From IMG/VR virus record IMGVR_UViG_2547132277_000003: a DNA stretch of 7,045 nucleotides; one strand, given 5' to 3'. Source of the stretch: a virus (taxonomy: Duplodnaviria > Heunggongvirae > Uroviricota > Caudoviricetes). The translations under genes and the position numbers were made by a program. Shown here piece by piece: positions 1 through 7,045 of this stretch (within the stretch, counting starts at the first letter, position 1; each line of letters starts with the position of its first letter). The notes beneath the pieces were generated by a model. That model did not search any database. It was given only the letters and a program-made list of their open reading frames with translations, and was not told the origin of the DNA.

Positions 1-852
1 TTCCTGCGTGAAGCGCTGTTCCGGTGTCTGCCTGAACTGGCGAAGTTCTCGCCTGTCAGCAACGTCAGCCATCCACTGCTCCAGTAGCTGGTTAACATGG
101 GCGAAGCTGTCGAACCGGCGGTACCGGATGAAGAAGTTTTCCTTGAGGTATTTCACCATCCGTTCAACCTTACCTTTGGTTCTGGCCCTTCGTGGACGGC
201 AGGCCCGTGGCAGGAAGCCATAGTGATCGGCCAGCAGCAGGAACCCGGAGTTGAACACCACCTTCCCGTTGTTATTTTTCAGCACTGCGGCTTTCTGGTT
301 ATCGACCAGCACGGTTTTCACGCTACCGCCGAAGTAGCGAAAGGCGCGGACCAGTGACTCATAGGTATGTTCAGCATCCTGCTTTGGTGCCGCGAAGACA
401 TGGAAGCGACGTGAGAACCCCAGCGTATTAACCGCGAAGTTAACCCTGCATCGTTGCCCGGCAACCTCAGCCTCAACTTCTCCCCAGTCATGCTGTAGCT
501 GGTAACCGGGCTGAGTTTCGAAGCGAACCGTTTTCTTCGATGGCCGCATCTTACGTTTGGGCTGGATGTAGTAGCGCAACATGGAACGGCCACCGGTATA
601 ACCCATCGCTTTGATTTCCGCCAGGATGACCTCGCCGTTCCAGACGTTCTCAGCCAGACGCATATCTATATAGTCCATGAACGGCTTGAGTTTGGCCATT
701 TTGTGGCGTGTTTTTCTGGCCGGAGGTTCCGGGTATTTCAGGTACCGTCTGACGGTCCGTTCAGAGCAACCAACCTGAGTGGCAATATCAACAATATACG
801 CACCTTGCTGGCGCATTTGCTTTATCATGTAAAAATCCTCTCTGCTCAGCAT
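1..852 (-). CDS. istA: IS21-family transposase IstA, N-terminal ~284 aa (C-terminus beyond window)
   Basis: Manual minus-strand translation from ATG (complement of 850-852) gives MLSREDFYMIKQMRQQGAYIVDIATQVGCSERTVRRYLKY..., an N-terminal HTH. Further in are ...GYQLQHDWGEVEAEV... (first Asp of the DDE core) and ...RPRRARTKGKVERMVKYLKENFF..., all typical of IstA. The frame stays open to position 1 (last residues read ...VADRRELRQFRQTPEQRFTQE). It is absent from the ORF track only because no stop lies in the window. Confidence 0.85.
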   Translation of the reverse strand, partial: MLSREDFYMIKQMRQQGAYIVDIATQVGCSERTVRRYLKYPEPPARKTRHKMAKLKPFMDYIDMRLAENVWNGEVILAEIKAMGYTGGRSMLRYYIQPKRKMRPSKKTVRFETQPGYQLQHDWGEVEAEVAGQRCRVNFAVNTLGFSRRFHVFAAPKQDAEHTYESLVRAFRYFGGSVKTVLVDNQKAAVLKNNNGKVVFNSGFLLLADHYGFLPRACRPRRARTKGKVERMVKYLKENFFIRYRRFDSFAHVNQLLEQWMADVADRRELRQFRQTPEQRFTQE

Positions 853-1497: not shown

Positions 1498-1690
1498 AAA
1501 AAGGCCATTTCCATTCAGGGTCTGATGGAAATACTTCAGCCTGTTCCAAAGCACGGCGTAAAGAGAACACAACTCCAGCCATAATCTGATGTTTCCCATT
1601 GGTCCAGCTATCGCCGCTCTGATCTACAGGGGCGGCTATGTCGTATGACCAAACGACTTCACAGTTATTGTTTAAAATCTGGACTTTCAT
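1415..1690 (-). CDS. hypothetical small protein (92 aa) in the PL-proximal position downstream of the repressor
   Basis: Start taken at the internal ATG (complement of 1688-1690) because it is preceded by GCAGGTG at 6 nt spacing; the ORF-track start at 1711 has no Shine-Dalgarno. It lies about 200 bp downstream (minus strand) of the OL-like operator pair. It is not Arg-rich, so not an obvious N-like antiterminator. It overlaps the 3' end of the plus-strand ORF 1252-1497 by 83 bp. Confidence 0.3.
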   Translation of the reverse strand: MKVQILNNNCEVVWSYDIAAPVDQSGDSWTNGKHQIMAGVVFSLRRALEQAEVFPSDPEWKWPFSICPNSESTFQKIGQKVALEEHQPTVS

Positions 1691-1897
1691 TTCATACACC
1701 TGCTTTAACATGAGTGCCTAGTGGCACAACATGACTCAACGAATCATCCTGGACTTCATATGCCCCAGGCGGCTACTTCGTGGGCGTCCTGCCTGTTCGT
1801 TTTTGACATTTACTGACTGCTTACGACACATGCACCGTGTTGCAACCAGATTTTGTTGTAATCCTGTAGTTGGTCTGGAACAAAAGATAAAATTAAA

Positions 1898-1934
1898 TTG
1901 CGAGACATGCAAATGATATTTGCGAGATATGCAA
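1898..1934. promoter_or_regulatory. OL-like operator pair: two 15-bp dyads TTGCGAGACATGCAA (1898-1912) and TTGCGAGATATGCAA (1920-1934)
   Basis: Near-identical direct repeats, each with inverted half-sites TTGCG / TGCAA, sharing the motif found in the repressor-cro intergenic region. A weak candidate leftward promoter overlaps them (minus-strand -35 TTGCAT at plus 1906-1911, -10 TATCTT at plus 1883-1888). Confidence 0.5.
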
Positions 1935-1946
1935 ATTTATAGGTAA

Positions 1947-1968
1947 TAAAAAGCCACCTTTCGGTGGC
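1947..1968 (-). terminator. intrinsic terminator downstream of the repressor gene
   Basis: Minus-strand RNA would form GCCACC-GAAA-GGTGGC (plus 1953-1968) followed by UUUUUA (plus 1947-1952), 21 bp after the repressor stop (1989-1991). There is no U-tract on the plus-strand side, so it is unidirectional. Confidence 0.65.
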
Positions 1969-1988
1969 CGATGGATGGGATATTGAGG

Positions 1989-2681
1989 TTAATTATGTCT
2001 CTTAAGGGTTTGCGACTGACTGATTAAGACCTTTCCAAAGACCATGAATCGGTGTTCGTTTTCGCTAGTAATTCCCCATTCACGGTAAATCTGGTTATCA
2101 GAAATCACCAGCAGTTTGTCAGGAATCATTTGAAGTCTTTTAACGTATATTTTGTCATCAAAACCAAAGACATATATACCATCACCATCAAACTGATTGA
2201 TGCTGACATCAACGAAGATGAGATCTCCGGGCTCAATGGTTGGACACATACTGTCCCCACGAACGTTGATAACTTTGATGTGATTGGCTGGTCGTCCGCC
2301 GAACATTGATACAGCATTATCAGTTCTGTATTCGATGGCATGAATCACATCAATGACATCACCGCCCTGGATAAGGCCATTTCCCGCACTGGCACTGATA
2401 TCCAGCATTTCAATACGGAACACATCCTTCACCTGCGCAACATCCTCATTATTACTGTTTTTATATACAGTATTACTTTTGTGGGCAGAGGTAAAGAGAT
2501 CAGCAATATCAACACCTAAGCTCTTGGCAATATTACTCAGTGTTTGTTCGGTAAATTGTTTTTGCTTACCCGTTTCTAAGCGCGAGATGTTCGCCGCATC
2601 TACTCCTATCGCTTCAGCGAGATCGGCGATTTTCATGTTCTTCGCTTGGCGAAGTTGTCTGACTCGGTTTCCTATGTTCAT
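1989..2681 (-). CDS. CI-type prophage repressor (N-terminal XRE-family HTH + C-terminal S24 LexA-like autopeptidase)
   Basis: 230 aa. N-terminus IGNRVRQLRQAKNMKIADLAEAIGVDAANISRLETGKQ is a classic HTH. The C-terminus carries the S24 signature GDSMCPTIEPGDLIFVD (Ser nucleophile) and IYVKRLQ (general-base Lys), with an Ala-Gly candidate cleavage site in DISASAGNG. The start has no Shine-Dalgarno and sits 6 nt after a -10-like hexamer. Confidence 0.9.
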   Translation of the reverse strand: MNIGNRVRQLRQAKNMKIADLAEAIGVDAANISRLETGKQKQFTEQTLSNIAKSLGVDIADLFTSAHKSNTVYKNSNNEDVAQVKDVFRIEMLDISASAGNGLIQGGDVIDVIHAIEYRTDNAVSMFGGRPANHIKVINVRGDSMCPTIEPGDLIFVDVSINQFDGDGIYVFGFDDKIYVKRLQMIPDKLLVISDNQIYREWGITSENEHRFMVFGKVLISQSQTLKRHN

Positions 2682-2778
2682 GCGTTTATTACATTTCTTT
2701 ATTGCGTGATAAGCAAATCAACTTGCGCAAAATAATTGCGTGAAATAACATGCATAACGCGCAATATTTGGAGGGCGT
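2682..2778. promoter_or_regulatory. divergent PRM/PR-like promoter-operator region between repressor and cro-like genes
   Basis: Candidate PR: -35 TTGCGC (2723-2728), 17 bp spacer, -10 TAACAT (2746-2751), then SD GGAGGG (2771-2776) before the cro-like ATG. Candidate PRM on the minus strand: -35 TTGCTT (plus 2711-2716), 17 bp spacer, -10 TGTAAT (plus 2688-2693), then 6 nt to the repressor ATG. Operator-like dyads: TTGCGTGATAAGCAA (2702-2716), the palindromic TTGCGCAA / CGCAA-N5-TTGCG cluster (2723-2740), and ATGCATAACGCGCAA (2749-2763). Confidence 0.6.
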
Positions 2779-3039
2779 ATGCAATCACCATTACGAAATG
2801 TGCGTAAGGCGCATGGTTTCACTTTGCAGCATGTTGCTGCGGGTGTTCAAGTCAATCCAGCGACGTTGAGTCGTATTGAGAGGCTGGAGCAGATTCCATC
2901 TATCGAGCTTGCAGAACGTTTAGCCAATTTTTTTAAGGGTGAAGTCAGCGAAATGCAGATTCTTTATCCGGCACGTTTTCAATCTAGCCAAAACCAGAAT
3001 GGGTTTAAACCACAGGAACAGGAGGTGAACCGTGGGTAA
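2779..3039 (+). CDS. Cro-like HTH transcriptional regulator (XRE family)
   Basis: 86 aa, divergent from the repressor, strong SD GGAGGG 3 nt... upstream of the ATG at 2779 (2771-2776). HTH segment GFTLQHVAAGVQVNPATLSRIERLEQ. Its 3' end overlaps the next gene by 8 bp. Confidence 0.8.
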   Translation: MQSPLRNVRKAHGFTLQHVAAGVQVNPATLSRIERLEQIPSIELAERLANFFKGEVSEMQILYPARFQSSQNQNGFKPQEQEVNRG

Positions 3040-3583
3040 GCATCACTGGAAAGTAGAAAAACAGCCTGAGTGGTACGTGAAAGCTGTCAGAAAAACTATC
3101 GCAGCGTTGCCGGGGGGGTACGCTGAAGCTGCTGACTGGCTGGATGTAACAGAGAACGCATTATTTAACCGCCTTCGTGCCGATGGCGATCAGATTTTCC
3201 CGCTGGGATGGGCAATGATTTTGCAACGTGCTGGTGGAACTCACTTCATTGCTGACGCTGTGGCGCAGTCTGCAAATGGCGTCTTTGTGTCTCTTCCTGA
3301 TGTCGAGGATGTGGACAACGCCGATATCAACCAACGCCTGCTGGAGGTCATTGAACAGATCGGCAGTTATTCAAAACAGATTCGTTCAGCAATCGAAGAC
3401 GGTGTAGTGGAACCGCATGAGAAAACTGCAATTAACGACGAGCTATATCTCTCAATTTCGAAGCTGCAGGAGCATGCAGCACTGGTCTACAAAATCTTTT
3501 GCATTTCAGAAAGTAATGACGCCCGCGAGTGTGCAGCTCCGGGCGCCGTGGCGTGTCGTGACTGTGGAGAAACTAACGCATGA
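3032..3583 (+). CDS. phage CII-like regulatory protein (CP76-type, ~183 aa)
   Basis: GTG start at 3032 preceded by AGGAGGT (3019-3025). Position immediately after cro and its size fit the enterobacterial prophage CII-like (CP76) family. The family call is from memory of that family and is not verified; the C-terminus has a Cys cluster [13 protein letters not shown]. Confidence 0.65.
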
Positions 3584-3918
3584 ACAGTTTAACAACACAC
3601 TACCGTCGCTCGCAACTGATTGCGCTTCCTGTACCGGGTGGAAAAGCGAAGGTGGAGTATTGCTATGCAGTAAATGTACCAGGTGACAGGGAAATTGTAA
3701 CCCACAGCTTTGCAGAGTGGGCTGTGGGTGATTTCAACCGGCAGAAGGAGACAGTCCTTTGCGACAAGTTAACCGCTGGTTCAAAGATCACTACGGAGTG
3801 CCCGTCAGAGTCATTCGTTGGGAACCGGAAACACAACGGGTTATCTACCTCCGCGAAGGCTATGAGCATGAGTGCTTCAGTCCGCTCGAACAGTTTCGTC
3901 GTAAATTCAGGGAAATAG
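3580..3918 (+). CDS. hypothetical protein (112 aa); frame is uncertain in its 3' half
   Basis: ATG at 3580 overlaps the CII-like stop (ATGA) and has GGAG 9-10 nt upstream. The N-terminal ~57 codons look protein-like, but the 3' half ([48 protein letters not shown]) is Ser/Thr-rich and reads like an out-of-frame translation. Confidence 0.3.
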
Positions 3919-3938
3919 AGGTCGGTCATGAGCACTAA
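3759..3938 (+). CDS. hypothetical small protein (59 aa, TTG start), alternative frame to the 3' half of 3580-3918
   Basis: Manual translation in the third frame: (M)[58 protein letters not shown]. Balanced, aromatic- and charge-rich composition. A perfect SD AAGGAG (3745-3750) lies 8 nt before TTG at 3759. Missed by the ORF track, probably because of its short length. Confidence 0.35.
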
Positions 3939-4869
3939 ATTAACCGGCTATGTATGGGATGGTTGCGCAGCGTCAGGCATGAAATTATCCAGCGTGGCAA
4001 TTATGGCCCGCCTGGCTGATTTCAGTAATGACGAAGGTGTGTGCTGGCCATCAATTGAAACCATTGCCCGTCAGATTGGCGCGGGGATGAGTACCGTCAG
4101 AACGGCTATCGCACGGCTGGAAGCAGAAGGCTGGTTAACGCGTAAGGCGCGTCGCCAGGGTAACCGCAATGCGTCGAATGTTTATCAGCTTAACGTTGCG
4201 AAGCTTCAGGCAGCGGCATTTTCTCAACTGTCAGATTCTGACCCGTCAAAATCTGACGCATCAAAATCTGACCCGTCAAAATTTGATGCGTCGAAATCTG
4301 GCAAAAAAGCGGGTTTTCACCCGTCAGAATCTGGCGGGGATCCGTCAGTAAAATCAAAACATGATCCGTCAGATAAAAAAACTTCTCGTCCGGACGCTTC
4401 GCAACCGGACACGCAGACGGCTGAACAGGAGTTTTTAACTCGCCATCCTGATGCGGTTGTATTCAGCCCTAAAAAGCGCCAGTGGGGAACGCAGGATGAT
4501 TTGACCTGCGCACAGTGGCTCTGGAAAAAAATCATCGCCCTGTACGAGCAGGCCGCCGAATGTGACGGCGAGGTGGTTCGTCCCAAAGAACCGAACTGGA
4601 CAGCCTGGGCAAACGAAATTCGCCTGATGTGTGTGCAGGATGGTCGTACTCATAAACAAATCTGCGAGATGTACAGCCGCGTCAGTCGCGATCCGTTCTG
4701 GTGCCGTAACGTGCTCAGCCCGTCGAAGCTGCGGGAAAAATGGGATGAGCTTTCCCTGCGCTTATCGCCGTCCGTCAGCACGTACACCGAAAAACGCGAA
4801 GACCCGTACTTCAAAGCCAGTTACGACAACGTGGACTACAGCCAGATCCCGGCAGGATTCAGGGGGTGA
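3928..4869 (+). CDS. phage replication initiation protein, O-like (N-terminal winged-HTH domain, iteron-encoded linker, C-terminal domain)
   Basis: 313 aa, SD GAGGT (3918-3922) 5 nt before the ATG. N-terminus VWDGCAASGMKLSSVAIMARLADFSNDEGVCWPSIETIARQIGAGMSTVRTAIARLEAEGWL resembles the HTH of prophage replication initiators. The central low-complexity linker (SDSDPSKSDASKSDPSKFDASKS...) is encoded by tandem DNA repeats, as in lambda O where the origin lies inside the gene. Confidence 0.8.
   Translation: MSTKLTGYVWDGCAASGMKLSSVAIMARLADFSNDEGVCWPSIETIARQIGAGMSTVRTAIARLEAEGWLTRKARRQGNRNASNVYQLNVAKLQAAAFSQLSDSDPSKSDASKSDPSKFDASKSGKKAGFHPSESGGDPSVKSKHDPSDKKTSRPDASQPDTQTAEQEFLTRHPDAVVFSPKKRQWGTQDDLTCAQWLWKKIIALYEQAAECDGEVVRPKEPNWTAWANEIRLMCVQDGRTHKQICEMYSRVSRDPFWCRNVLSPSKLREKWDELSLRLSPSVSTYTEKREDPYFKASYDNVDYSQIPAGFRG
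4228..4380. repeat. iteron-like tandem repeats (putative phage replication origin) inside the O-like gene
   Basis: Five contiguous 15-bp units at 4228-4302 (cTGTCAGATTCTGAC, CCGTCAAAATCTGAC, GCATCAAAATCTGAC, CCGTCAAAATTTGAT, GCGTCGAAATCTGGC), then further CCGTCAG-initiated copies at 4321, 4342 and 4366. Each unit has internal dyad symmetry (GTCAGA / TCTGAC). A moderately A-rich stretch (4343-4381) follows. Confidence 0.6.
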
Positions 4870-4871
4870 GC

Positions 4872-5360
4872 ATGAGTCTTTTGAATGACGTTCAGAAATT
4901 CATTGAAGCCCATCCGGGCTGTACTTCCGGAGATATTGCGGATGCTTTTGCCGGTTACTCACGGCAGCGCGTTCTGCAGTCAGCAAGCAAGTTACGTCAG
5001 AGTGGGCGTGTGGCTCACCGTTGTGAAGGAGATACACGCAGACATTTCCCGCGCCTGACTGAGAGAGCGCAGGAACCGGAACCACAACCAGTTCGTGAAA
5101 CCAGACCTGTGCGCAATTTCTATGTCGGCACTAACGATCCCCGTGTGATTTTGTGCCTGACCCGCCAGGCGGAAGAACTGGAGTCCAGGGGCTTATACCG
5201 TCGTGCTGCAACCGTGTGGATGGCGGCATTCCGTGAAAGCCACTCCCAGCCAGAACGAAACAATTTTCTGACGCGTCGTGAGCGGTGCTTACGGAAAAGC
5301 AGCAAGCGCGCTGCATCGGGTGAAGAGTGGTATCTGTCAGGGAATTACGTGGGGGCTTAA
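4872..5360 (+). CDS. PerC-family (Pch-like) transcriptional regulator with an N-terminal winged-helix-like extension
   Basis: ATG at 4872 preceded by AGGGGG (4861-4866); an alternative GTG at 4866 overlaps the upstream stop. The C-terminal half contains ...AEELESRGLYRRAATVWMAAF...RRERCLRK..., matching the signature I associate with PerC/Pch activators. Family call is from memory and not verified. Confidence 0.55.
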   Translation: MSLLNDVQKFIEAHPGCTSGDIADAFAGYSRQRVLQSASKLRQSGRVAHRCEGDTRRHFPRLTERAQEPEPQPVRETRPVRNFYVGTNDPRVILCLTRQAEELESRGLYRRAATVWMAAFRESHSQPERNNFLTRRERCLRKSSKRAASGEEWYLSGNYVGA

Positions 5361-6013
5361 TGAGTAATAAATATTGCCAGGCGCTGGTGGAACTGCGGAA
5401 CAAACCAGCCCATGAACTGAAGGAAGTGGGCGATCAGTGGCGCACGCCGGACAACATTTTCTGGGGAATTAACACCCTGTTTGGCCCGTTTGTTCTGGAT
5501 CTGTTCACTGACGGTGATAACGCCAAATGTGCCGCGTATTACACGGCGGAAGACAACGCGCTGGCGCATGACTGGTCAGAACGTCTTGCGGAGCTTAAAG
5601 GTGCTGCCTTTGGTAATCCCCCATACAGCCGCGCCAGTCAGCATGAGGGGCAATACATCACCGGCATGCGTTACATCATGAAACATGCCAGTGCCATGCG
5701 TGATAAGGGCGGGCGCTATGTTTTCCTGATCAAAGCTGCCACCAGCGAAGTGTGGTGGCCGGAAGATGCAGATCATATTGCTTTTATTCGCGGGCGTATT
5801 GGTTTTGAACTGCCTGTCTGGTTTATCCCGAAAGACGAGAAGCAGGTACCGACAGGAGCTTTTTTCGCTGGTGCTATTGCTGTTTTTGACAAGACCTGGA
5901 AGGGACCGGCAATCAGCTACATCGGGCGCGATGAACTTGAGGCATGTGGTGAGGCGTTTCTGGCGCAGGTTCGCCAGCAGGCGGAAAAACTGGTCAGGGA
6001 GATGGCGGCATGA
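5360..6013 (+). CDS. phage-type DNA N6-adenine methyltransferase (Dam family), orphan with no adjacent restriction gene
   Basis: Catalytic motif IV AAFGNPPYSR is present, with upstream DQWRTPDNIF and VLDLFTDGDNAKCAAYYTAEDNAL typical of phage Dam-type enzymes. Start chosen at ATG 5360 (TAATG overlap with the upstream stop); an in-frame GTG at 5327 is an alternative. Confidence 0.85.
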   Translation: MSNKYCQALVELRNKPAHELKEVGDQWRTPDNIFWGINTLFGPFVLDLFTDGDNAKCAAYYTAEDNALAHDWSERLAELKGAAFGNPPYSRASQHEGQYITGMRYIMKHASAMRDKGGRYVFLIKAATSEVWWPEDADHIAFIRGRIGFELPVWFIPKDEKQVPTGAFFAGAIAVFDKTWKGPAISYIGRDELEACGEAFLAQVRQQAEKLVREMAA

Positions 6014-6336
6014 CGACGTTAACTCAATGCCAGCAGCAGGTGCTGGATATGCTGATTTCTTATCAGAAAGAACGTGGCTTCCCGCCAACCAATCAGGAGG
6101 TGGCAACCATGCTGGGATACCGTTCGGTGAATGCAGCGGTGGAGCATCTTCGCGCACTGGAGAAAAAAGGCGTCATCACGATAAAGCGTGGCGTGGCCCG
6201 GGGGATAACGCTTCATACCGCGGTGAAGGACGACGACAGCGAGGCGGTCGGGATTATCCGCGCACTGCTTGCCGGTGAGGAAAACGCAAGGCTGCGTGCA
6301 ACCCACTGGTTACATGAGAGGGACCTGAAAGTATGA
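6010..6336 (+). CDS. LexA-like DNA-binding-domain-only protein (winged HTH, no S24 peptidase domain)
   Basis: 108 aa. LTQCQQQVLDMLISYQKERGFPPTNQEVATMLGYRSVNAAVEHLRALEKKGVITIKRGVARGITL parallels the LexA N-terminal domain (LTARQQEVFDLI...[36 protein letters not shown]...) but the protein ends about 35 residues later with no Ser/Lys dyad. ATGA overlap with the Dam stop. Confidence 0.75.
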   Translation: MTTLTQCQQQVLDMLISYQKERGFPPTNQEVATMLGYRSVNAAVEHLRALEKKGVITIKRGVARGITLHTAVKDDDSEAVGIIRALLAGEENARLRATHWLHERDLKV

Positions 6337-6614
6337 AGCTGATCCTGCCTTTTCCGCCCAGCGTGAACACGTACTGGCGACACCCCAACAAAGGGGCGTT
6401 TGCTGGTAAGAGCCTGATAAGCGCGGCGGGGCGAAAATTCCAGAGCGCGGCGTGCGCAGCAATAGTTGAGCAGTTACGTCGTCTGCCGAAACCAACGTCG
6501 GCACCTGCTTCAGTGGAGATCGTGTTGTTTCCTCCGGATAGACGGGATGGAAAACCGCCGCCATCGCCTGAACTGGGAAATGAGCCGGGACAGGTGTTTG
6601 CGGCTTGGCAGTAA
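6333..6614 (+). pseudogene. rusA: RusA-family Holliday-junction resolvase, C-terminally disrupted (catalytic Asp region missing)
   Basis: N-terminus MKLILPFPPSVNTYWRHPNKG matches the RusA signature (E. coli RusA LPWPPSNNRYYRHNRG). Similarity continues through ...VEIVLFPPDRR, but the expected RRDLDN...K...D catalytic segment is replaced by DGKPPPSPELGNEPGQVFAAWQ-stop. No alternative frame in 6538-6660 restores it. ATGA overlap with the upstream gene. Confidence 0.55.
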
Positions 6615-6650
6615 CCGGCTCATTTAAACCGTCTGGTCTGTTTCCTCCGG
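6526..6650. repeat. 12-bp exact direct repeat TGTTTCCTCCGG (6526-6537 and 6639-6650) flanking ~101 bp at the rusA breakpoint
   Basis: Seen directly in the sequence. The first copy lies within rusA codons just before homology is lost; the second lies 44 bp upstream of the right-hand transposase start. Confidence 0.6.
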
Positions 6651-6693
6651 CTCTACAAAAATAATGTCCATCATTTTTAATGGACACTATCGT

Positions 6694-7045
6694 ATGAAAC
6701 ACCGGACCTGGATCACTGAAGCTTTACGTCTTCACTTTGAAGAACATTTACCCCGGGTTGTGGCCGGGCGTCGCCTGGGTGTACCAAAATCAACAGTTTG
6801 TAGTATGTTCGTGCGCTTTCGGAGAGCTGGCCTTTCGTGGCCTTTGCCCGCAGGCATGTCGGAGCAGGAACTTGATGCCTGCCTTTACGGACAATTTTCC
6901 ACGATACCAGTCGTACGTCCTGAAAGCACCGTTATATCCGAAGCCCCCGTGGTAAAAAAACGTCCCCGGCGGCCCAACTTCCCTTATGAGTTTAAAATCG
7001 CCTTAGTGGAGCAGTCACTGCAGCCCGGAGCCTGTGTGGCGCAGA
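6694..7045 (+). CDS. IS transposase, N-terminal part with two HTH regions (family uncertain, IS3-family OrfA-like; partial, runs off window end)
   Basis: Manual translation from ATG 6694: MKHRTWITEALRLHFEEHLPRVVAGRRLGVPKSTVCSMFVRFRRAGLSWPLPAGMSEQELDACLYGQFSTIPVVRPESTVISEAPVVKKRPRRPNFPYEFKIALVEQSLQPGACVAQ..., no stop before the window end. The second HTH resembles IS2-type OrfA ([25 protein letters not shown]). It differs from the left-hand IstA, so the two flanking elements are different. Confidence 0.6.
   Translation, partial: MKHRTWITEALRLHFEEHLPRVVAGRRLGVPKSTVCSMFVRFRRAGLSWPLPAGMSEQELDACLYGQFSTIPVVRPESTVISEAPVVKKRPRRPNFPYEFKIALVEQSLQPGACVAQ

Follow-up and report, generated by a model that had tools for sequence, protein, structure and literature searches.

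Genes and relatives of the immunity region

The window (the whole stretch of DNA analysed, 7,045 nucleotides) carries two divergent genes, a repressor gene on the minus strand (1989..2681) and a cro-like gene on the plus strand (2779..3039), separated by a 97-bp gap; of 11 lineages, 10 have this length and the remaining one has 98 bp. The repressor gene encodes a CI-like protein of 230 aa with HTH_3 and Peptidase_S24 domains, assigned by Pfam and by an alignment to UmuD. The cro-like gene encodes an 86 aa HTH_3 protein, also assigned by Pfam, and is preceded by the Shine-Dalgarno sequence GGAGG (2770-2774, plus strand). The two genes are annotated as cI and cro in Shigella phage SfII. The third gene of the module (3032..3583, plus strand) encodes a CP76/CII-like (YmfL-like) regulator (Pfam PF06892) and adjoins cro in distant lineages too. 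At the far end of the repressor gene, a rho-independent terminator with a 7-pair stem followed by a T run lies at 1952..1969 on the minus strand, and a terminator is likewise recorded in the SfII annotation. Rfam and tRNA scans found nothing within 1898-2778.

The window is 98.7% identical to SfII (KC736978) over 1700-3600 and 98.4% identical over 1649-6548, and shares with it cI, cro, ‘cII’ and the terminator. Unlike SfII, it is a prophage copy interrupted by IS elements at 952/953 and 6548/6549, and its insert at 1219-1648 differs from the SfII sequence. The immunity module is present in 1039/5426 complete E. coli genomes and is also carried by Shigella serotype-converting phages and some Stx2a phages. 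The switch is real and unsurprising. The module already forms part of a sequenced and annotated phage, SfII. Operators, promoters and a leaderless start are absent from the annotation of the SfII record and from the SfII genome announcement, and the literature searched contained no paper on operators or transcription start sites in SfII, mEp460 or ST64B-type immunity, and no binding, transcript or cleavage results for this module. We consider it probable that the region serves an SfII-type lambdoid prophage as its immunity switch, working in ordinary lambda style with operators, a leaderless repressor mRNA and self-cleavage of the repressor.

For comparison, a GTDB scan yielded four usable loci only, and deeper lineages were reached by protein search and contig look-ups. 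The footprint scores for the two dyads of the right operator (OR) come from 7 lineages, and the table of all sites takes in 11 diverged lineages, which extend to Lonsdalea, Klebsiella, Buttiauxella and Kosakonia. Copies from IMG/VR, whose repressors are 99-100% identical, are too close for deep footprinting and served as the source of micro-diversity at the left operator (OL). The same gene order is found in e14 (ymfK-ymfT-ymfL) and SfV, where the downstream genes are 95% identical to those of the window (3004-4161). We rejected e14 as a member of the same immunity type: its ymfK and ymfT are of the SfV type, and only the downstream genes match. Both e14 and SfV differ from this module in having their own repressor, cro and operator (TTGTACC-N5-GGTACAA), that is, a different immunity specificity.

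A dyad motif at the proposed left and right operators

The original prediction held that a 15-bp dyad is shared by OL-like and OR-like sites. Exact matches to TTGCG-N6-GCAA occur at 1898-1912, 1920-1934 and 2702-2716 (3 vs 0.17 expected), a number reached in 1 of 200 shuffles. The looser TTGC-N7-GCAA finds the same three sites in the 7 kb (0.26 expected), and 0 of 200 shuffles reach three. The site at 2750-2764 (ATGCATAACGCGCAA) has one mismatch; alone it is not significant, and it is kept in 11/11 lineages. When the window was scanned with a PWM whose matrix was derived from related loci, four main sites scored 17.7-19.2 bits, the next best 11.6 bits and the shuffle maximum 8.3 bits on average; the high-scoring sites are confined to the two regulatory gaps.

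Two of the main sites form OL, just past the terminator of the repressor gene: OL1 (TTGCGAGACATGCAA, 1898..1912; an exact match, 18.3 bits), with conserved arms and a variable centre, and OL2 (TTGCGAGATATGCAA, 1920..1934; an exact match, 19.2 bits), which lies 22 bp from OL1, the spacing in relatives being 21-24 bp. The other two lie in the gap between the divergent genes. Site A (TTGCGTGATAAGCAA, 2702..2716) is an exact match of 19.2 bits with invariant arms and a variable centre, and site C (ATGCATAACGCGCAA, 2750..2764) scores 17.7 bits, its ATGC-N7-GCAA being invariant in 11 lineages around a variable centre. A fifth, weaker dyad, site D (GTGCGTAAGGCGCAT, 2800..2814; 11.6 bits), is found inside cro. 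Six other lineages have TTGCG-N5-CGCAT or CGCAA at this place, and the third-codon positions of the site are fixed in the arms and variable in the centre.

At every main site the 11 lineages keep the 4-bp arms, and the 7 bp between the arms drift. For the OR dyads in 7 lineages, 16/16 arm positions are invariant vs 2/14 centre positions (Fisher p = 1e-6), and 60 OL haplotypes combine almost unvarying arms with multi-allelic centres. It is almost inconceivable that the repeated motif arose by chance in AT-rich intergenic DNA. That the one-mismatch class is only mildly enriched (8 matches vs 3.15 expected) would suit such an origin, but the exact matches far exceed expectation and all fall in the two regulatory gaps, and the arms that persist while the centres change already refute chance. 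The recognition-helix region of the repressor is unchanged across five aligned phage lineages, so the same operator specificity would be expected in each; AANISRLETGK is its commonest form among 120 homologues. The comparative data support TTGC-N7-GCAA as the probable operator common to OL and OR, and the proposed sharing of the dyad by the two sides is borne out by three exact matches, a fourth with one mismatch and the conserved arms.

In every lineage the motif is inherited together with both Cro and the repressor, and the comparative data therefore cannot separate the two proteins. The dyads might then be bound mainly by Cro or by another factor, or the repressor might have a different or larger site, such as the invariant CAACTTGCGCAA box, which is conserved equally with the dyads. 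We regard an arrangement of this kind as very unlikely. The OL dyads occupy the position from which a prophage repressor has to silence the leftward operon, the geometry of the dyads (11 bp from centre to centre, with arms of 4 bp) suits HTH dimers, and the N-terminal domain of the repressor matches the solved designed protein dh434 (E = 4e-4), whose name points to 434 repressor. The 434 operator has 4-bp arms around a non-contacted centre (ACAA-N6-TTGT); its half-site sequence differs from that of the dyad here, which has a spacer one base longer. In lambda and in CP-933P, repressor and Cro-type proteins use common sites (PMC8630535 for CP-933P). Use of the same sites by Cro is an assumption here, since the N-terminal domain of CI and Cro have no pairwise similarity. 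Recognition of the dyads by the repressor is the reading we retain.

Predicted promoters and start of the repressor mRNA

Conserved arrangements of a -35 element, 17 bp and a -10 element overlap dyads at PL, PRM and PR. A sigma-70 consensus scan of 1700-3100 found no promoter, so all three were assigned from conservation; by hand count they match only 7-8 of 12 consensus positions. The predicted PL reads TTGCAT-17-TATCTT on the minus strand. Its -35 TTGCAT (1912-1907) is the right arm of OL1, which covers -35 to -21, and its -10 TATCTT (1884..1889), exactly 17 bp away, is found in 8/11 lineages, with TATCAT in one more. The predicted PRM, also on the minus strand, reads TTGCTT-17-TGTAAT. Its -35 TTGCTT (2716-2711) is the right arm of site A, which again covers -35 to -21, and its -10 TGTAAT (2688..2693) is invariant in 11 lineages. 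On the plus strand, the putative PR -35 TTGCGC (2723-2728) lies in the TTGCGCAA box (2723..2730), which also holds a strong half-site and begins 21 bp from where site A begins. In this box 8/8 columns are invariant in 7 lineages, and ACTTGCGCAA is constant in 11. The putative PR -10 TAACAT (2746..2751), 17 bp from TTGCGC, keeps the form TAAnAT in 11/11 lineages. Site C overlaps the final bases of this -10 and includes the position, about 2757-2758, at which PR is predicted to start.

The dyads had been proposed to overlap the -35 and -10 elements of both divergent promoters. This stands for the PRM -35 and, at PR, for the final two bases of the -10 plus the predicted start; the PRM -10 has no overlap, and the PR -35 coincides with a half-site only. 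The sites themselves are real, and the layout needs amending: OR consists of two full dyads and the half-site at the PR -35, and the fifth dyad lies inside cro. A third full OR operator at 2723-2737, 2726-2740 or 2735-2749 was considered and rejected, the right halves being degenerate and unconserved and the positions outside the 20 best PWM hits. Three adjacent OR operators with an OR2-type activating site, as in lambda, are thus not found, the middle position being a half-site. The assignment to the lambdoid switches consequently rests on other features, with a lambda-like working and a different wiring, and positive autoregulation is not to be assumed, as no full dyad occupies a position like that of the activating lambda OR2.

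Read on the minus strand, 2679-2681 gives the repressor ATG and 2688-2693 gives TGTAAT, with 6 bases (2682-2687) between them. TGTAAT-N6-ATG holds without exception in 11 lineages, ATG being the only start codon seen, and the 6 intervening nt vary. No GGAG-like Shine-Dalgarno sequence was found before the repressor ATG, and the sequence thus confirms the claim of an ATG that lacks one and lies 6 nt past TGTAAT. Change in codons 2-15 is confined to synonymous or conservative substitutions. With HTH_3 beginning at residue 7, a start at Met16 would truncate the domain. The geometry recurs in lambda, where the repressor ATG also lacks a Shine-Dalgarno and follows a -10 hexamer at a distance of 6 nt (TAGATT-TAACGT-ATG), and in e14/SfV (TTTAAT, 6 nt, ATG). 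Taken together, these comparisons leave the predicted leaderless transcript, similar to that of lambda cI, well supported: the repressor mRNA would begin at the A of AUG. In CP-933P, an analogous switch with the same 97-bp intergenic length, the repressor is leaderless by 5' RACE and N-terminal sequencing (PMC8630535).

An mRNA with a leader appears unlikely. It would start upstream, for example at an OR promoter that went unrecognised or at one inside cro that depends on CII, and be translated from Met1 without a Shine-Dalgarno or from Met16, the start annotated in 3 of 7 phage records and 7 of 120 protein clusters. In its favour, the promoter scan found no PRM, and regulators such as the CP76/CII-like protein encoded here could drive an establishment promoter; such a promoter, however, would supplement and not replace a leaderless maintenance transcript. 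A manual reading of the 97-bp region gave no better minus-strand promoter, and the pattern of change in codons 2-15, the start of HTH_3 at residue 7 and the exact 6-nt distance from TGTAAT to an invariant ATG across variable bases all argue for the leaderless form. The repressor start is thereby assigned to Met1 (230 aa), where public records conflict.

Lambda and this module have in common the divergent repressor and cro genes, an HTH and S24 repressor, a dyad used at both OR and OL, and an OL that lies past the end of the repressor operon. On each side lambda carries three operators of 17 bp, with OR2 abutting the PRM -35 for activation, whereas OR here consists of a half-site and two full 15-bp dyads spaced by 48 bp, and OL has two dyads. 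Site A covers PRM from -35 to -21, unlike lambda OR3, which covers -11 to -27. A further dyad lies inside cro, rexAB is missing, N is not recognisable, and the ‘cII’ gene is of the CP76/YmfL type, unlike that of lambda. The paaR2/ydaS/ydaT region of CP-933P (E. coli O157:H7) has a divergent intergenic region of 97 bp, as here, with two well-conserved palindromes, over PRM and PR, together with repeats that miss one half-site; related repeats occur at a PL-like promoter, the operators being common to OR and OL (PMC8630535). Its repeat consensus differs, being of the GTTTAGTAA type and 18 bp long. PaaR2 is the regulator of a toxin-antitoxin operon (PMC8630535), whereas the repressor here has an S24 domain, and the CP-933P repressor activates PRM at low dose (PMC8630535).

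Among prophages whose repressor, cro and OR are essentially identical, the non-contact bases of OL (those of OL2 especially) and the spacer between its dyads are multi-allelic; natural OL2 alleles include GAGAT, GAAAT, GTGAT and GGGAT. Diversity at these non-contact and spacer positions is about 20-30 times that at synonymous sites of the neighbouring gene, and the contact arms are fixed. Combined with the non-lambda wiring (two full OR dyads, of which the best lies on the PRM -35, an additional dyad within cro, and nothing at an OR2-like activator position), this hypervariability might mean that OL changes recurrently, as a hot spot, and in doing so tunes the switch, with the strength of PL repression or OL-OR looping under diversifying selection. 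We find this doubtful; if true, lysogens with one common repressor would differ in induction threshold.

Probable repressor cleavage and proposed operation of the switch

In the Peptidase_S24 domain of the repressor (PF00717, E = 6e-19), Ser144 and Lys181 align to Ser60 and Lys97 of UmuD. Ser144 is kept in 119/120 homologues, Lys181 in 120/120 and Ala99-Gly100 in 119/120. The S24 Ser/Lys dyad and the Ala-Gly site, both claimed to be kept, are therefore each present in at least 119/120 homologues. Gly106-Gly107, which a MAFFT alignment placed against the Ala-Gly of lambda CI and LexA, was rejected as the cleavage site: position 107 is Ser in 103/120 homologues. Ala99-Gly100 was preferred to it for its conservation alone. 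The conservation of Ser144, Lys181 and Ala99-Gly100 makes RecA/SOS-triggered self-cleavage of the repressor plausible.

The distance from Ala-Gly to Ser is 45 residues here; in lambda, LexA and UmuD it is 35-38 residues in the published numbering. This distance would fit an S24 domain that serves mainly for oligomerisation, with derepression by an antirepressor or some other route and no cleavage of the repressor. Relatives such as mEp460, Stx2a_1447 and the ST64B-like Salmonella phages have Rha or antirepressor genes just downstream of the CII-like gene, but the window and SfII are without an antirepressor at that position. Salmonella prophages offer a precedent, in that repressor cleavage is not their main route of induction and many use antirepressors (reviewed in PMC7380047). 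On the other side stand the near-universal Ala99-Gly100, Ser144 and Lys181, and the origin of SfII, which came from its lysogen by induction (PMC3772137), where the phage is described as ‘induced’ with the method unstated. We judge induction without self-cleavage to be improbable and retain cleavage as the working model.

What the sequence shows is the motif and how it is conserved, which genes are present, the catalytic residues and the placing of the -10 relative to the ATG; from these we infer how protein binding, promoter use, start sites, cooperativity and cleavage could fit together. Dimers of the CI-like repressor, and probably the Cro-like protein too, would recognise TTGC-N7-GCAA, with half-site centres 11 bp apart. 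Occupancy of OL1 by the repressor would block PL. Binding to site C, which overlies the PR start point and the final bases of its -10, would shut off cro, and binding to site A, over PRM from -35 to -21, would give negative autoregulation of the repressor. Two helical turns separate site A from the PR -35 half-site, which may fill cooperatively, and site D, 50 bp downstream of site C, may serve as a roadblock or loop anchor. Transcription from PRM should begin at the A of the repressor ATG and give a leaderless mRNA like that of lambda cI. On DNA damage, RecA would stimulate self-cleavage at Ala99-Gly100 by Ser144 and Lys181, which should part the DNA-binding domain from the dimerisation domain and so release PL and PR.

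The finding leaves the general understanding of such switches unchanged. With the module in about one fifth of complete E. coli genomes, the operator motif and promoter map are useful as annotation. The motif predicts which prophages have common immunity, and the mapped sites offer concrete targets for induction studies.

The SfII-type immunity region and its surroundings

Over 1649-6548 the window shares 98.4% identity with the early region of Shigella phage SfII (KC736978), and 953-1218 match SfII as well. IS elements flank the phage segment at 1-952, which includes an rve-type transposase gene (1-828, minus strand), and at 6549-7045, where the right-hand element truncates rusA at 6548. The SfII annotation gives a 693-nt repressor gene, cI (1989-2681, minus strand; Pfam HTH_3 and Peptidase_S24), a terminator just past it (stem 1969-1952), cro (2779-3039; HTH_3) and, after cro, a gene named 'cII' (Phage_CP76). 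The module is the lambdoid immunity switch of this sequenced phage; no operators, promoters or leaderless start are described for it in the SfII record or in any paper found. It is carried (window 1880-2790) by 1039 of 5426 complete E. coli genomes, and also by mEp460, several Stx2a phages and ST64B-like Salmonella phages.

SfII lacks the segment 1219-1648, in which lie an 81-aa ORF on the plus strand (1252-1497) and the 3' portion of a 98-aa ORF on the minus strand (1415-1711); a Pfam search matched neither. On the minus strand, 949-1164 gives a full-length match to the STnc100 sRNA family that falls below threshold (36.5 bits, gathering score 47; E = 3e-5), in a stretch common to SfII and e14. 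Identity to e14 is 95% over 3004-4161, and the 112-aa ORF at 3580-3918 is by position, size and DNA similarity the counterpart of e14 ymfM, a gene whose annotation is cell division inhibitor. Within an O-like replication gene, a 15-bp unit (TCTGACCCGTCAAAA) is present four times at 4237-4300; the copies also encode a DPSKSD peptide repeat, and by analogy with lambda ori they are likely to be origin iterons. The nin-like region also encodes a 108-aa protein (6010-6336), annotated in SfII, that is made up solely of a LexA DNA-binding domain and lacks S24; it might be a mimic of LexA that cannot be cleaved.

Proposed operator dyads and promoters

The original prediction placed a shared 15-bp dyad both beyond the repressor terminator (OL) and in the repressor-cro gap (OR), and motif searches bear this out. 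The 7045 bases contain three exact TTGCG-N6-GCAA matches, against 0.17 expected: OL1 (1898-1912) and OL2 (1920-1934), both past the terminator stem, and site A of the 97-bp OR (2702-2716). TTGC-N7-GCAA recovers the identical three sites (0.26 expected; 0 of 200 shuffles reached three), and a fourth copy with one mismatch, site C, lies at 2750-2764. With a weight matrix from related loci the four sites score 17.7-19.2 bits, the next site 11.6, and the shuffle maxima average 8.3.

We compared the same module in 11 lineages with repressors 69-100% identical (window/SfII, mEp460, Stx2a_1447, Salmonella phage F1055, three Citrobacter, Lonsdalea, Klebsiella, Buttiauxella and Kosakonia). Their DNA specificity should be shared: the recognition-helix region (GVDAANISRLETGK) is identical in five aligned phage lineages, and AANISRLETGK is the form seen most often in a set of 120 homologues. 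When OR was aligned across seven of the lineages, sites A and C proved invariant in all 16 of their arm columns but in only 2 of their 14 centre columns (Fisher p = 1e-6), a pattern also kept in the four deeper lineages. At OL, almost all lineages have both dyads, spaced 21-24 bp apart, with arms nearly fixed and centres multi-allelic. Fixed arms around varying centres are typical of a dyad that a protein contacts outside its centre, and the TTGC-N7-GCAA dyads are taken to be operators.

A sigma-70 consensus scan of 1700-3100 found no promoters, so the leftward (PL), repressor (PRM) and cro (PR) promoters are placed by conservation and geometry. An operator arm would provide the -35 element of each, 17 bp from its -10. 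For PL these are TTGCAT (1912-1907) and TATCTT (1889-1884), the latter at the exact distance in 8 of the 11 lineages; for PRM, TTGCTT (2716-2711) and an invariant TGTAAT (2693-2688); for PR, TTGCGC (2723-2728), part of an invariant box (CAACTTGCGCAA), and TAACAT (2746-2751), which is TAAnAT in all lineages. OL1 covers -35 to -21 of the inferred PL, and site A the same span of PRM. Site C takes in the final two bases of the inferred PR -10 together with the start predicted at about 2757-2758, a double duty that would account for its starting with ATGC, not TTGC. In the window, the position at PR equivalent to OL1 (2723-2737) has a good left half but not a good right one; among the deeper lineages, four (C. 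amalonaticus, Klebsiella, Buttiauxella and Kosakonia) keep 3 of the 4 right-arm bases. OR thus consists of two full dyads 48 bp apart and, 21 bp from site A, a half-site. The operator triplet of lambda is absent, and the switch differs from lambda in operator sequence, number and placement; the CP-933P switch is the closest in layout.

A fifth, weaker dyad, GTGCGTAAGGCGCAT, lies at 2800-2814 within cro codons 8-12 (11.6 bits). Its equivalent is TTGCG-N5-CGCAT in six other lineages, with CGCAA in one of them. The third-codon positions in its arms (G of TTG/GTG and of GCG/TCG) never vary and those in its centre (Arg and Lys codons) vary freely, which points to a constraint acting on the DNA; the dyad may serve as a roadblock or a loop anchor.

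Hypervariability at OL was seen among 82 prophages whose repressor proteins are 99-100% identical (64 distinct 1.3-kb haplotypes; loci L009-L089). Per-site diversity is 0.11-0.15 in the dyad centres and inter-dyad spacer (1895-1950 region; 17 of 21 columns vary), versus 0.005 at repressor third-codon positions (11 of 230; Fisher p = 1e-15) and 0.003 for cro. The OL centres and spacer are 20-30 times more diverse than cI synonymous sites, with repressor, cro and OR near-identical; diversity in the OL arms is only 0.013, and the OR centres exhibit no comparable hypervariability. A single 1.3-kb background, otherwise identical, carries six OL alleles of one substitution each. This variation may stem from recurrent selection acting on PL repression, from hypermutability of the locality or from micro-recombination. 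One prophage (L030) retains a single OL dyad; a deletion between the repeats, which are spaced 22 bp apart, seems to have removed the other.

Predicted cleavage residues of the repressor and possible routes of induction

The repressor had been proposed to be SOS-inducible, with an S24 Ser/Lys dyad and an Ala-Gly site. Both features hold: Ser144 and Lys181 align with UmuD Ser60 and Lys97, the lysine being marked by the K97A mutant chain 8gmt, and Ala99-Gly100 is retained in 119 of 120 homologues. MAFFT sets Gly106-Gly107 opposite the Ala-Gly of lambda CI and LexA, and we rejected this pair as the cleavage site, residue 107 being Ser in 103 of the 120. With Ala99-Gly100 kept and residue 107 mostly Ser, the likely scissile bond is Ala99-Gly100. 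It lies 45 residues ahead of the catalytic serine, somewhat longer than the 35-38 of LexA, lambda CI and UmuD. Induction is how SfII itself was obtained (PMC3772137). In relatives there are antirepressor genes downstream, and the weight of antirepressor routes in Salmonella is emphasised in a review (PMC7380047); the window has no antirepressor gene at that downstream position.

A predicted leaderless repressor transcript

As had been noted, the repressor ATG (2681-2679, minus strand) has no Shine-Dalgarno and follows TGTAAT (2693-2688) after six bases, AAACGC. TGTAAT-N6-ATG is unchanged in the 11 lineages, ATG being the start codon in every one, and the six bases in between differ (plus strand GCGTTT, GCACTT, TCACTC, GCGCCT and others). 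Lineage differences in repressor codons 2-15 are almost confined to synonymous third positions. With the HTH_3 match starting at residue 7, this points to Met1 as the true start, and not to Met16, the start annotated in 3 of 7 phage records and in 7 of the 120 clusters of homologous proteins. Public records differ on repressor length (693 nt in SfII and PhiR47_1; 648 nt in mEp460, Stx2a_1447 and 1720a-02), and we favour the 693-nt form.

Lambda has a matching layout, TAGATT-TAACGT-ATG. The CP-933P switch also has a 97-bp gap, and its repressor was shown to be leaderless by 5' RACE and N-terminal sequencing (PMC8630535). A leaderless repressor mRNA in the window is a well-founded prediction. 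The e14 and SfV immunity type, which has its own dyad (TTGTACC-N5-GGTACAA), has the matching layout TTTAAT-TTCGTT-ATG, in which TTTAAT is -10-like, with no Shine-Dalgarno (L095 3435-3524; L002 1360-1449), and the leaderless layout seems, from these sequences, to be general in this group of phages.
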